Below are positions 48,001 to 60,000 of a DNA stretch of 64,000 bases, one piece after another. The position numbers were made by a program. The stretch is taken from the NCBI RefSeq assembly GCF_053078305.1, contig NZ_CP166879.1. One strand, 5' to 3'. Numbering within the stretch: the first letter of the stretch is position 1; the number at the start of each line of letters is the position of its first letter.

Positions 48001-51000
48001 TAGTGCTATCAAATAGACTATGTAAGCACTTCATGAAGGATGTCGGTCGAACTGAACGGGAAACTTAATGATGCGAAAAATACTCAGGACAACTCTTATC
48101 GCTACAATTTTGTTTTCACCAATAGTACAGGCGGAGTGGTATACAGTAACAGACGACGATTTGTTCTCTGATGGTCACACGGCGCTGATGGTAGGAAAAA
48201 AAACATCAAATCCTGAAGAGATTGATAATAACATGATTGCTCTTAATTGTACGCCAAGATCCCTAACATTCTCATTAGTCGAAAAGGACATAGAAGAAGA
48301 AACATCGGCCCCAATTTATTCATTCCCAATAGATATGGCAATAAAAATTGACAAAAATAGTATAATAAGGCTCAACGCAACACTTTCAAGAAGAAACTCA
48401 ATGCTAACACAAGCTATCACTGAACGTACTGATACTGAAATGAAGAAAATTAAAATTATACTCAGGCAACTCAGAGATGCTAAACATAGAGTGAGGGTCG
48501 GGATTCGACGCCAAGACATCACACGAGAAGATGCCATGACATATTCTTTCAGCTTTAATGTATTAGGCTCCACTGGTGCTGTTAATAAATTTATCACTGC
48601 ATGCGGAATAAAGCTGTAAACATGTTTCTGCCAAAGCAACCTTGACAAATCCACATCGACGGGGATATATTCCACCTCATGGTGCTGAACACACCTTGCA
48701 AAGCGGAGACCGCACCCGTCAGTCATGCGGCTTTTTTATGTCCATTTTTCAGATATGGTCGGGTAGCGCGTATACCGAAAAACAGCCGAAAGGTTAAGGA
48801 TACGGGCCGACTTTGCACGGTGTTCAAGTACCTGGCCGCCCTGCTGAACACAGGGCTATCTGAACAAATGCAAAGGACATAAAATATGAACTCTCAACTC
48901 ATCCCCGTATTCAACGGCACTATCGACAACGAAACTACCCTGTTCTGTAATGCCCGTGATTTACACGCGTTTCTCGAAGTCGGAAAAGACTTTTCCACGT
49001 GGATACGAATCCGCATCTCCGAGTATGAATTTACAGAAAACCAAGATTTTATTTTGCTCCCCAAAACGGGGGAGCAAAGAAAAGGTAGAGGCGGTCACAA
49101 CCGCAAGGACTACCACCTCACTCTCGATACAGCCAAAGAGCTTGCGATGGTTGAACGTAACGAAAAAGGCCGCCAGATACGCCGATACTTCATCGAGTGC
49201 GAAAAGAAACTTCGCCAGAGCCTTTTACCTGCACCAATGAACATCAACTACCCTCTCTCGTGGTTCTCAGATAACCATCCCTACGCCACGATGAACTATG
49301 TTGATCGCAAAGTTATCAGCCTTGATGCTTCCGTGCTCTTCGATATGCCAAGCCCAACTATGCGCATCCTCAATGAGCTACACAGCAAGGGCTATAACGT
49401 TGACGCCGCTGTCGCCGAATTTAACGCCTTCAAACATCTGACGGAAGAAATGCGCCGTAAATTGCTGGATATTTCCCGCACATCGGAAAAGTCTTCCCGC
49501 TTTGGTTTCAACGTTAATCTTTAATTAACCCCATCCCCGATCACATATCGGGGATTAAATTAAATATCTGGATTAATTAACCGGAGGATTTGTCATGCTC
49601 AAACCTCACTACGGAACCGCATTAGTTTCTCGCGAGGAAGTTAAACCCGGCACTGCAATTCTTTACAACGGGCGTTATTACATGGCGTCAGCTAACGTTA
49701 ATAATGCACTTTACGCACATTCACTGATTGAAAAAATTCGCATTATCTCAGATGCAATAGAAGTTTACCTGAACAATAAAGGCCAACCGTTAATCTCACC
49801 AGCCTGAAAGGAAATATCATGCTCAATCAAGAAATTAATATCAATGTAAAAAGCGTCATAACGCCAGCGAAAACGATAATGGGAGAAGTTTTTATGGATG
49901 ATAAAATCATCGCCTATTTTGTCGTCCTGCCTGATGAGGCTATTTCTGTTATTGATACGGAAGGCAATGTTATGTTTATCGCGGAACATCCAGAAGACAT
50001 CGCATTACAGGCCGCTGCATATTTCTTCGCTAAGGAGCAAGAGGAAGAATGTAACTGCCCTGTCTGTCAGCTTTCCCGACAAATTAATTTAATGCATTAA
50101 CCGGAATCAGGAGTTCCGCCATGAACGCATACCTCACCTGCGACCGCATAGAGGAGCGTCGCTGGGCTAATCAGCAAATTCAGGATGAAAAGGATAAATG
50201 GATTGATGATCGGGCGCAGGAGCTTATCAGCATGTTCCCCGATAAACCATTGCTTATGAGCAGCCTTTTTTTACCCAAAGAAGCCCAACTGGCACTCACT
50301 GGCGAAAAAGCTGAAGAGGCGTACAACGATTATATCTCAGCGATCGCCTATGCTCGGGCGGAAGAAGAATGGGAGAGAAAATTCTCCCCCTGTCCTTTCT
50401 GATTTTCAGGACCAAAAAAATGTTCGATATCGTTGAATTTGTTAAGCAGCAGGAGCGCTTTTTCTGCGAGGCATTAACTGAACCAACGCTGACATGGGCG
50501 AAGGAAAGTCAGTTTGCAATTCAGCAATTCCAGAAAAATGCCTTTCTGGCTGACACAGCACGGGGAAATCTGTCCAGCGCACAGAACGCTATCATCAATG
50601 TTGCCGCTATAGGCATAACCCTGAACCCGGCCAGCAAGCTGGCGTATCTGGTCCCACGAAAAAAGGCTGTATGCCTGGATATCAGTTATATGGGGCTTCT
50701 GCATCTGGCACAGGTCACAGGAGCCATTCAGTGGGGGCAATGCAAACTTGTTTACGAGAAGGACATTTACGAGTCCAACGGTATTGACTGCGCCCCCACG
50801 CACAAATACAACCCATTCGTAGACAGGGGCGCACGCATTGGCGGTTATTGTGTCGTAAAAACATCCGAAGGCGACTATCTGACCGAAGAGATGAGCAACA
50901 GGGAAATCGAGGTCATCAGGGCGTGCAGCAAAGCCGGAAATAACGGAGGAAGTAGCCCGTGGGATAGCTTCCCCGACGAAATGGCCAGAAAAGCCATTGT

Positions 51001-57000: not shown

Positions 57001-60000
57001 GATATCCTCCACTCTCCGACGCCGCCAGAATGACGGCGCGGTGGTTAAGCATGAGGCGAAATTTCTGCCGGGCGGTATTTTGTTGAGAGATGAGATACGT
57101 CAACTTCTCTTTCCGCTTTTTCGAGGCTCCATGCCGTCTGGAGACGAATCCATGAAGACGGAGTTCCACCCAGGACAGCAGCGAGACGAACAGCCATTTC
57201 AGGAGATATTGTCGCATTACCTGAAACCAGTCGCTGAACAGTGGAAGGCGCGACATCAAGCGCTCTTGCCAGTTCCCTGATTCCAATATTCTGATCTTCC
57301 AGAATATCAGCAATAATTTCTCCGGGATGAGGGGGGTTAAACATCGCCATTAGTGGTAATCCTCGTAGTTAAGAATATAAGCATCGCCGTTCCGAAACTC
57401 GAATGTGATTCTCCAGTTACCGGAGACGGTGACAGACCATGTATCGGATCTGTCCCCCTGCAACTGGTGCAGCCTGTACCCGGCAAGGTTAATATCATCA
57501 ATGATTTCAGCTTGATCTATTACCTGAAGGCGCGTTCTCAGGCGTTTAACGTGATTGGGATTTACGCCTGATGCATTTCCTGTTTCAAAGAAACGTTGAA
57601 GTCCTTTGTGTTTCCAGCTTTTTATCATGCTTGTTTCCTGTTGCGTTACGTGAATCATTATAGCGACTGTTGTGTAATGCGCAACGGTTGTTTGACAAAA
57701 ATAGGTATCCGGGATTATATTCTTCGCACGGTCGAGTTGACCGTCGGGATTCGAACCCCGGATAGAAACCGCGACAGAGACACGCCGCGAGCGTGTTTTT
57801 TATTGTCGTATGCACGCGCACATCTGAATTATGGTGGGGCGTATAGGGGAGCTGAAAAGCTCGCCGGTTGGTTTCCCGGTAGTTCGAACCCTGTACGTCT
57901 CACCACCCGATGATTCGAACCTAACGGTGGTGATAGTTTAGAAACCACTCGAGGGCGTCATAATGACAACTCAAGTTTCTGTTGAAACACTCTCCACGAT
58001 TACTTACAAGCAGATCCCCGTTATCACTACCGAACTTTTGACGCACCTTTACGGCACAGAAGCTATTCGTATTCGCCAGAATCACCACGAAAACAAAGGT
58101 CGTTTCATTGAGGAAAAACACTTCTTCAAACTTGAAGGTGAAACTTTACGTGAGTTCAAGCACAGAGTAGCTTTTAACTACTCTGTGAAAATCGCCCGTA
58201 ATGTTCGCTCCCTCATCCTCTGGACAGAACGCGGCGCAGCCCGTCACGCAAAAATGCTCGAAACCGATCGGGCGTGGGAAGTGTTCGAAAAACTGGAAGA
58301 CTGCTATTTCAGCCAGAAAACTCCAGAACAACTTCAGCTTCCAGAATCAACGCTATCTATCAACTACCCTCTATCGTGGTTTTCTGAGCATCACCCATAC
58401 TCCATGATGAGCTATGTTGATCGAAAAACTCTTAACCTGGACGTTTCTGTGCTCTTCGATATGCCAAGCCCAACTATGCGCATCCTCAACGAGCTACACA
58501 GCAAGGGCTATAACGTTGACGCCGCTGTCGCCGAATTTAACGCCTTCAAGCATCTGACGGAAGAAATGCGCCGTACTCTACAGGATATTTCAAGACTGTC
58601 AGATCGAAATTCCCGAAAAGGCTTCTCGTTAAGCCTGTAACTTCCCCTACCATCCCCGACATCCCGTCGGGGTTTTCATATCTGGAGAAAAAATTTGAAA
58701 CAGATCGCTTTCTACAGGCGTTCTGGAAGGCCCGGTGCCTTCCGTGGGTTAAAAGAGCGCGTCACCTGGATGATTCAGTCTCGTGGTCGTCCTGTTACTG
58801 GCAGTGAAATAGCAGAGAAATTTGGTGTTTCACTTTGCGAGTTCAACAAGGTAGCTCGCGGCCTGACAAAGGGCAGTAAGGTTGTGAAAATAAAGGCTTC
58901 AGAACCATTCACCACAGACACCGGAATCGTTGATCGCTTTTTCTCCCTCGAATCAAATCCTCGTCGTGATACACCTCGCTCACGCAATGCCGTTCCTCCA
59001 TTCAGTCGCAGAAGCCGTGAACACGCAGCAAAAAACTGCCGCGAGGAATACGAGCAAAAGGCCAAACGCCGTCGCCGACTGATTAAAGCAGGACTTTACA
59101 TTGATGAGTTTGAAAACGCGCTATGACGAAAAAATACACCCTCATTTACGCAGATCCACCATGGACATTCCGCGACAAAGCAACCGATGGTCAACGCGGT
59201 GCAAGTTTTAAATATCCGGTCATGAACCTTCTCGATATCTGCCGCCTCCCGGTATGGGAACTGGCAGCCGATAATTGCCTGTTGGCTATGTGGTGGGTGC
59301 CTACACAACCACTTGAAGCATTGAAGGTTGTAGAAGCGTGGGGCTTTCGTCTGGTGACGATGAAAGGATTAACCTGGAACAAATGCGGGAAAAGACAGAC
59401 CGACAAGCTGGTCATGGGTATGGGTAGCACCACTCGCGCTAACAGCGAAGACTGCCTTTTTGCAGTGAAAGGAAATCTGCCCGAACGCATTAACGCCGGA
59501 ATAATCCAGTCATTCACTGCACCACGCCTTGATCACTCCCGCAAGCCGGATATGGCTCGAGAAAAACTTGTGCAACTTCTTGGCGATGTTCCCCGGATAG
59601 AACTGTTCGCCCGCCACACCTCGCATGGATTTGATGTATGGGGTAACCAATGCGGCACACCATCCATTGAGATGGTTCCGGGTATTGTTAAATTTCTGGA
59701 GAAAACCAATGAGCGAAAAAACGACGTTGACAAAGGCATCACCAGTTGAATTAAGGCAGTGTCTGGAAATCGCAAATCAACTTGCCAGAAGTGGAATACG
59801 ATTTGTTCCAATCCCGATTACAGCAGATGCAGAACTTCATCTGTTTGGTGAAATTCTTTCCCGAAAGCTGGATGAACTGGAAAAGCTGGTAGAAGAAGCT
59901 GACACCTCACTAACCGTATAACAGCCCCACCGACATTAAAATATCAGGAGAAAAAAATGAACGCAGTGCTCACAGAATTGAACAAATTAGGAAAAGCATC

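Follow-up and report, generated by a model that had tools for sequence, protein, structure and literature searches.

In the immI region of phage P1, the ant gene is under the control of c4 RNA (PMC8201110), and in the isrK-orf45-anrP locus of Gifsy-1, the IsrK RNA acts in trans to activate translation of the AnrP antirepressor (PMC4825925). APSE phages carry isrK and c4 upstream of a BRO-N protein and sRNA-Xcc1 upstream of an ORF6N protein, and in one of their slots Rha and AntA alternate; such leaders have been noted in these phages beside Rha and AntA genes as well as beside BRO-N and ORF6N genes (PMC7313666). A different kind of system is represented by Ant of phage SPC32H, a complete and self-sufficient antirepressor of 86 amino acids (aa), which, as a tetramer, engages two dimers of Rep and so disrupts the tetramer of the repressor (PMC9638917). 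Here, we analyzed 64,000 nucleotides (nt) of contig NZ_CP166879.1 (NCBI RefSeq assembly GCF_053078305.1), referred to below as the window. The region of interest is the early-left arm of a prophage of the Shiga toxin (Stx)-type lambdoid group, and it contains two antirepressor-like open reading frames (ORFs), ORF A and ORF B, which share a C-terminal module and are each preceded by a c4-family RNA. Phage regulators shuffled between KilA-N, Bro-N, Rha, AntA, and ORF6N heads were reportedly described by Iyer, Koonin and Aravind in 2002.

We give a probability of about 0.6 to the following explanation, which was built from sequence comparison and analogy. Two paralogous antirepressor cassettes would fill two conserved early-left slots: slot 1, just 5′ of kil/gam/recT/exo, and slot 2, close to int and directly followed by a 143-aa ORF plus an MT-A70 methylase. 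Each cassette would form its own transcription unit consisting of a sigma-70-like promoter, an IsrK-like leader, a c4 RNA, target sites, and the gene. By analogy with P1/P7 immI and Gifsy-1, the c4 RNA would pair with the targets at the ribosome-binding site and keep the gene untranslated, and the IsrK-like RNA, with the same two sites, would relieve this block. Since the pairing words differ between the cassettes, no cross-talk would be expected from one switch to the other. The head, which varies (AntA in cassette A, ORF6N in cassette B, Rha in many relatives), would move together with the promoter and leader, and the C-terminal module would stay in its slot. The core of this module, homologous to Ant, would be the part that binds the repressor and oligomerises. 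The 98% identity of the two cores would result from strong constraint on the protein plus a recent recombination or gene-conversion patch that put slot-1 synonymous variants into copy B.

At 215-240 nt upstream, ORF A and ORF B have a promoter-like site of the same form (TTGACA, an 18-nt spacer, TATATT). The parts of cassette A are as follows:

48642..48671, + strand: promoter-like site, TTGACA/18-nt spacer/TATATT, 11/12 matches; the homology to AntA cassettes in other genomes starts here (query position 643)
48678..48740, + strand: IsrK-like leader with sites b1 UGAACAC (48686-48692) and a1 UGCAAAG (48697-48703), followed by a hairpin and T-run (48710-48737)
48757..48845, + strand: c4-family antisense RNA, full-length match to Rfam RF02221 sRNA-Xcc1 at 65.9 bits (gathering score 53)
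48811-48817 and 48820-48826, + strand: c4 loops a′ CUUUGCA and b′ GUGUUCA, respectively
48845..48877, + strand: predicted targets b2 UGAACAC (48845-48851), UGAACA (48861-48866), and a2 UGCAAAG (48869-48875)

The corresponding parts of cassette B are as follows:

57692..57721, + strand: promoter-like site, TTGACA/18-nt spacer/TATATT, 11/12 matches
57728..57801, + strand: IsrK RNA, match to Rfam RF01394 at 53 bits (gathering score 50), with a terminator hairpin and T-run
57750-57756 and 57765-57770, + strand: IsrK sites b1 UUCGAAC and a1 GAAACC, respectively
57827..57910, + strand: C4 antisense RNA, full-length match to Rfam RF01695 at 70.1 bits (gathering score 45)
57869-57875 and 57882-57888, + strand: C4 pairing words, loop a′ UGGUUUC and junction b′ GUUCGAA, respectively
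57914..57955, + strand: predicted targets b2 UUCGAAC (57914-57920) and a2 GAAACCA (57941-57947), adjoining the Shine-Dalgarno sequence GAGGG (57951-57955)
58654..58672, + strand: terminator-like hairpin with a T-run after ORF B

In both cassettes, exact complements of the c4 loops, 6-7 nt long and in the correct order, are present in the leader and again at the ribosome-binding site. The sequence of cassette A was read directly for complementarity to a′ and b′; its a2 site overlaps the Shine-Dalgarno sequence AAGGA (48873-48877). The pairing words of cassette A are absent from cassette B and vice versa. The four pairing sites of cassette B did not occur together in any of 100,000 shuffles; the interval shuffled in this test excluded the downstream b2 site of cassette A, which was likewise read directly. 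The energies of full-length c4-target duplexes were uninformative, with the whole RNA unfolded, and loop-to-site complementarity was read directly instead. In four relatives, C4 or sRNA-Xcc1 was found directly upstream of all the module genes inspected (8/8), often together with isrK. An ORF of 34 codons (57832-57934, + strand) overlaps the C4 RNA of cassette B and stops ~27 nt before the ATG of ORF B; there is none in cassette A. The 'Ash family' (PF10554) N-terminal extensions of some annotated homologues are the translated c4 leader (P0006, P0019; positions 3499-3586 of the VT2phi_272 locus, L001), and such translations are comparable to orf45 of Gifsy-1.

The window resembles P1/P7 immI in that a c4-family RNA lies in the leader of the antirepressor gene on the same strand, and in that two loop words have complements downstream, at the ribosome-binding site, as well as in a second copy further upstream, the pairing in the window being predicted. 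The AntA domain is named after P7 Ant and occurs in ORF A but not in ORF B. In P1/P7, icd is coupled to ant, whereas in the window the interval from c4 to ORF A has no ORF, and cassette B has only the 34-codon ORF over C4. The C-terminal domain of P1/P7 Ant is KilAC/ANT; the module in the window differs, and this domain was not found in ORF A or ORF B, with the module tested up to E=10. The window is also unlike P1/P7 in having two cassettes with different pairing words in one lambdoid prophage, and no C1-type operator was seen at the promoter. The locus order of Gifsy-1 isrK-orf45-anrP-isrJ, that is, a promoter, IsrK with a terminator, a structured leader, and an antirepressor-like gene, is found in the window as well. 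Cassette B shares with Gifsy-1 an Rfam isrK match and a small ORF over c4; cassette A has no isrK match at the gathering score and no small ORF, and it resembles that locus in arrangement only, through its two sites and the hairpin and T-run behind them. No match to isrJ was obtained in the window at the gathering score. The Gifsy-1 locus lies next to antQ, whereas the cassettes of the window lie in the early-left region. As in the domain-shuffled regulators, including those of APSE, the same head families have been swapped onto a common partner. The partner in the window differs in that it has no Pfam family, is very narrowly distributed (25 of 1.8 billion representatives), and occurs in two to three copies per genome at fixed slots. 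All the parts of the cassettes are of known kinds: the leaders are c4/IsrK, the heads AntA/ORF6N, and the effector domain is Ant-like. Two points, the relation of the module to Ant and the exchange of heads in two slots, are modestly new, as they are absent from the annotations and from four publications (PMC8136144, PMC3064807, PMC8044961, PMC3293862).

The two ORFs and their shared part are located as follows:

48886..49524, + strand: ORF A, 212 aa, with an AntA head (Pfam, residues 22-92) and the C-terminal shared module
57963..58640, + strand: ORF B, 225 aa, with an ORF6N head (Pfam, residues 12-98) and the C-terminal shared module
49243..49524, + strand: shared module, copy A, 94 codons, with the core at 49333-49459
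58359..58640, + strand: shared module, copy B, with slot-1-type synonymous variants in the core (58449-58575) and slot-2-type flanks

A base-by-base comparison showed that ORF A and ORF B are homologous in their final 94 codons (49243-49524 and 58359-58640), with stop codons in the same register. The N-terminal halves are unrelated in sequence, and no relation between A and B was found 5′ of 49243. The repeat finder reported a direct repeat of 233 nt (49243-49475 and 58359-58591) with 88% identity and an offset of 9116 nt. The similarity is uneven: the 5′ part of the module (49243-49332) is ~77% identical at the nucleotide level, the core (49333-49459 and 58449-58575) is identical at 125 of 127 nt with perfect runs of 59, 41, and 25 nt, and the tail (49460-49524) is ~50% identical. 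The near-identical stretch thus amounts to ~42 codons. At the protein level, ORF A and ORF B share 71% identity across 113 aa. The repeat search covered 30-64 kb of the window, and in these 34 kb it found only three families of direct repeats of at least 30 nt, one of them a long direct repeat. Because there are so few families and because the module recurs in 105 phage genomes, the A/B repeat goes far beyond chance. The initial annotation had described the C-terminal ~90 codons as almost identical. Homology does span 94 codons, but exact alignment limits the near-identity to 127 nt rather than ~270 nt, and the strings quoted as examples lie inside this core. Its other statements about the pair agree with our results: the N-terminal domains differ (AntA against ORF6N), the ~9 kb separation in direct orientation is 9,116 nt with both genes on the + strand, and the two genes are antirepressor-like by their families (PHROG 377 and 1760 and, in Pfam, AntA and ORF6N). 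As a whole, that first account was right about the repeat, the shuffling, and the nature of the genes; it overstated the extent of identity and missed the c4/IsrK leaders and the likeness to Ant.

When the module alone was searched against Pfam up to E=10, only a chance match to CobN was obtained. Among the PHROGs, the shared part forms the C-terminal end of families 1760, 377, and 995, and it also occurs as the stand-alone 77-aa family 17980. In an exhaustive profile search of 1.8 billion cluster representatives, 25 proteins carried the module at E<=1e-3, at the C-terminus in all cases, and the Pfam heads on module proteins were KilA-N (5), ORF6N (4), Rha (3), P22_AR_N (2), Bro-N (2), and AntA (1). 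This search was more useful than word-indexed homologue searches, which returned mostly partial E. coli proteins and little extra diversity. Among deposited phages, the module is present in 105 records, nearly all of them Stx-converting and mostly with two or three copies per genome. P13374 (O104:H4 outbreak), TL-2011c, PA2/PA8, and phage 2851 are among these phages. In phage 2851 (L056, 8298-9291 and 10741-11543), the antA module gene with an isrK + C4 leader lies in the nin region beside an IS3 element; a second ant gene, antB, has an sRNA-Xcc1 leader, and a module match was reported in antA only. The module merits a family of its own in annotation, and the labels 'antitermination protein', 'Ash family', and 'Rha family regulator' on module genes are misleading.

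The profile A6, made from 17 diverse module sequences, was compared with the PDB by hmmsearch. It matched 5d50_E, the Ant chain in the structure of Salmonella phage SPC32H Ant bound to Rep, at E=4.7e-5, and the next match had E=0.19. The alignment of the module and Ant by hhalign had a probability of 92.4% and 34% identity over 47 columns, all of which fall within the invariant core VLFDMPSPTMRILNELHSKGYNVDAAVAEFNAFKHLTEEMRR. In the reverse search, the Ant fragment found its own family PHROG 450, PHROG 1760 (the ORF6N+module family) at 5e-7, and PHROG 17980 at 0.003; ORF B and module A matched the Ant families PHROG 450 and 15539 at ~5e-4. The invariant core aligns to Ant residues 12-74, with the common motif L..L...G(Y/F)NVD....E..A. 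This data indicates that the module core is homologous to SPC32H Ant. Because Ant disrupts a repressor tetramer, the shared module is most likely the antirepressor part proper, responsible for repressor binding and oligomerisation. SPC32H Ant is a stand-alone protein of 86 aa, whereas the module of the window is fused to a head, is placed behind an RNA leader, and belongs to a phage with a lambda-like cleavable CI. According to Kim and Ryu (2013), SPC32H Ant is reportedly LexA-controlled and acts on a non-cleavable Rep.

It could be argued that the module is only a helical oligomerisation domain and that the heads are the effectors, acting as DNA-binding regulators, as the annotations 'Rha family regulator' and 'antitermination' imply. 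We regard this as unlikely. The sole specific relative of known function is an antirepressor that needs no other domain (PMC9638917), head-less module ORFs of 77-78 aa exist in relatives (L029, L008; PHROG 17980), and the c4/IsrK leader is a classic control of antirepressor genes (PMC8201110, PMC4825925).

To follow the heads and modules across genomes, 52 viral module loci, together with VT2phi_272 and E. coli O26 RM10386 (L003), were surveyed, and the copies were classed by head and by downstream gene. Slot 1, with kil downstream, was occupied by Rha, AntA, ORF6N, or the head-less module, and slot 2, with the 143-aa ORF downstream, by ORF6N, AntA, or the head-less module. The tail and the 5′ part of the module track the slot, as defined by the downstream gene, whereas the head varies: for example, whatever the head, copies followed by kil have the tail KLLDISRTSEKSSRFGFNVNL and those followed by the 143-aa ORF have TLQDISRLSDRNSRKGFSLSL. 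E. coli O26 RM10386 shows the opposite arrangement to the window, as its slot 1 holds ORF6N and its slot 2 holds AntA; its recT/exo block is intact. The homology of cassette A to the slot-2 AntA cassettes of other genomes starts exactly at the promoter -35, so the mobile unit consists of the promoter, leader, and head. In VT2-Sakai-like phages, the ORF6N head and leader are joined to another C-terminus, and the homology ends at ~58316, just before the module. The joint of shuffling is the head/module boundary. The domain shuffling proposed in the initial annotation is therefore well supported, since the same module is joined in relatives to Rha, AntA, ORF6N, KilA-N, Bro-N, and P22_AR_N heads. 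The two-slot arrangement of RNA-gated cassettes is standard in this Stx phage lineage. From the fact that the same head was never present in both slots (12/12 loci) we make no claim, as the probability expected from head frequencies is ~0.2. Tandem module genes were seen in slot 1 of RM10386 (L003:2915-4618) and of three other loci (L009, L014, L015), which gives three module copies per prophage; the pair consists of a Rha gene with a slot-2-type tail followed by an ORF6N gene with a slot-1-type tail.

The repeat could also be viewed chiefly as a recombination substrate, in which a RecA or RecT/Exo crossover between the cores deletes the ~9-kb kil-gam-recT-exo-ea block and leaves a chimera with an AntA head and a slot-2 tail. 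RecA-dependent exchange in E. coli needs a minimum of roughly 25-30 nt, which runs of such lengths exceed. The geometry would permit such an event, with direct copies 9,116 nt apart, perfect runs of 59, 41, and 25 nt, and RecT/Exo encoded by the phage itself, and a gene of the predicted form is present in databases (P0009, an AntA head with a slot-2-type module upstream of the 143-aa ORF). However, P0009-type genes sit in prophages in which the recT/exo block is complete and slot 1 is occupied by a further module gene. Their joint is at the head/module boundary and not in the core, because the 5′ part of the module is of slot-2 type. Two synthetic deletion junctions, one from the window and one of the commoner PA2/VT2phi_272 type, were searched in 5,426 complete E. 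coli genomes at a contiguous match threshold of at least 80%. Neither was matched contiguously, although 625 and 875 genomes hold the parts. Apparent matches to the window junction proved to be prophages with heads swapped between slots and an intact recT/exo block. We consider deletion improbable as the chief role of the repeat. The deletion substrate suggested by the initial annotation is sound in its geometry, but no natural deletion was found in these 5,426 genomes, and deletion of the intervening block is hypothetical.

The synonymous sites of the core were compared between the slots. In PA2-type genomes, the slot-1 and slot-2 cores differ at nine sites, all synonymous, and copy B of the window has the slot-1 state at 9/9 of them, with flanks of slot-2 type. 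Among nine distinct genomes, the identity of the core between slots is highest in the window (98.4%) and 83.5-97.6% in the others. The core of the window is a recombination or gene-conversion tract of ~100-127 nt. That purifying selection on an essential peptide alone explains the near-identity, with no recent exchange, is very unlikely: the core peptide VLFDMPSPTMRILNELHSKGYNVDAAVAEFNAFKHLTEEMRR is invariant in nearly all surveyed copies and the differences between the window and PA2-type cores are all synonymous, but protein selection cannot equalise synonymous sites such as the nine in copy B, and the 83.5-98.4% range fits repeated exchange.

Several observations weigh against the explanation based on two RNA-gated antirepressor cassettes. 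The homology between the module and Ant is remote by sequence. A Foldseek search of the module model against the PDB gave no significant match, and the AlphaFold 2 model of the module was of moderate confidence only (predicted local distance difference test, pLDDT, 70), so the structural support is weak and the case for Ant homology rests on sequence profiles. A single-sequence AlphaFold model of full-length ORF B was unusable (pLDDT 38). The resident repressor is a lambda-like, S24-type self-cleaving CI and is not similar to SPC32H Rep; for this reason, we infer the antirepressor role of the module rather than state it. No LexA box was matched at 48600-48700 or 57650-57750, and a search of the short cI-cro intergenic stretch revealed no palindromes and no motif in common with either cassette promoter. 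The leader of cassette A has no Rfam isrK match at the gathering score, and its likeness to IsrK is in layout only. The evidence for homogenisation is modest, with a within-genome core identity of 94.8% against 93.7% between genomes (permutation p=0.026, n=9). The exchange itself is clear; the patch in the core could equally stem from exchange with another phage.

The genes of the region are, in order, CI, a HicB-like gene, a 183-aa secreted-looking ORF, and ORF A, and then kil, gam, recT, exo, and the ssb-like and ea genes. Next come a PHROG 1726 gene and a HigBA pair, and these are followed by ORF B, the 143-aa ORF, the MT-A70 methylase, and integrase. The neighbouring features are as follows:

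33428..33997, - strand: fourth antirepressor candidate, P22_AR_N + ORF11CD3 domains, adjoining a lysozyme gene
45468..46226: lambda-like CI, helix-turn-helix (HTH) and Peptidase_S24 domains; match to 3bdn at E=5e-74
46633..46977: HicB-like antitoxin
48068-48619, + strand: ORF of 183 aa whose N-terminus is signal-peptide-like, assigned to PHROG 19473 but to no Pfam family, between cI and cassette A
49595..49807, + strand: kil-like gene, the marker of slot 1, annotated as Kil in VT2phi_272, directly downstream of a module gene here and 3′ of slot-1 module genes across related loci
50369..51370, + strand: recT-like gene, part of the ~8.4-kb block separating the cassettes
51367..52056, + strand: exo-like gene, part of the same ~8.4-kb block
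56265..57002, + strand: third antirepressor candidate, PHROG 1726 'anti-repressor', no Pfam family
57350..57658 and 57045..57350, - strand: HigB-like toxin and HTH antitoxin, respectively, directly upstream of cassette B and in the opposite direction
58695..59749, + strand: 143-aa ORF (PHROG 1680) and MT-A70 methyltransferase, the markers of slot 2
61330..62664: integrase

Two further antirepressor-like genes had been noted initially, making four candidates in one prophage. All four carry PHROG antirepressor labels, and the one at 33428..33997 is on the minus strand. The shared module is absent from both additional genes, as a tblastn scan of the window with the module gave two copies only, and no c4-family RNA lies beside either of them at the Rfam gathering score. 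No N-like gene was recognised from cI to cassette A. The 183-aa ORF was not found joined to an AntA cassette in the complete E. coli genomes searched, in which the cassette matches start only at 48642. The nearest deposited phages are VT2phi_272/PA2/PA8, P13374-like, and wrbA-integrated Stx phages, with 96-98% identity across 60-77% of the region; none of them is colinear with the window throughout. In the IMG/VR contig L007, both genes and their spacing are identical to those of the window.

Some other features of the prophage were recorded. The self-cleaving-type CI (45468..46226) is paired with a primase/helicase replication module (41787..44268, - strand) in place of O/P. The ORF at 59957-60355 (+ strand) has seven tandem PVQ repeats with a 9-nt DNA repeat at ~60150-60215, and when read from the opposite strand it gives successive CTG codons. 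The small RNA STnc100 (Rfam RF02076) occurs twice in tandem on the - strand, at 37847-38060 and 38122-38333 (199 and 139 bits, respectively); the two copies match the direct repeats D2/D3 (273-275-nt spacing) and are close to the stx/nanS-p region.

Shiga toxin is made only upon prophage induction, and the toxin output varies widely between strains for reasons that are only partly understood. The lineage described here includes the outbreak phages P13374 (O104:H4), TL-2011c (O103:H25), and PA2/PA8 (O157:H7), and its members have two to three copies of a domain that lacks annotation but is similar to an antirepressor of known structure; a predicted RNA switch precedes each copy. A rather doubtful extension of our reading, which we offer tentatively, is that in the PA2/P13374 Stx phages these two to three antirepressors, with one Ant-like effector domain, differing heads, and a c4/IsrK switch of their own that does not cross-react with the others, might constitute a RecA-independent, multi-input route of induction, which might help to set Shiga toxin output and be rewired between strains by exchange of head plus leader at the module. 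If the proteins act on CI or on the repressors of co-resident prophages, they would provide a testable account of spontaneous or RecA-independent induction and of cross-talk between prophages.

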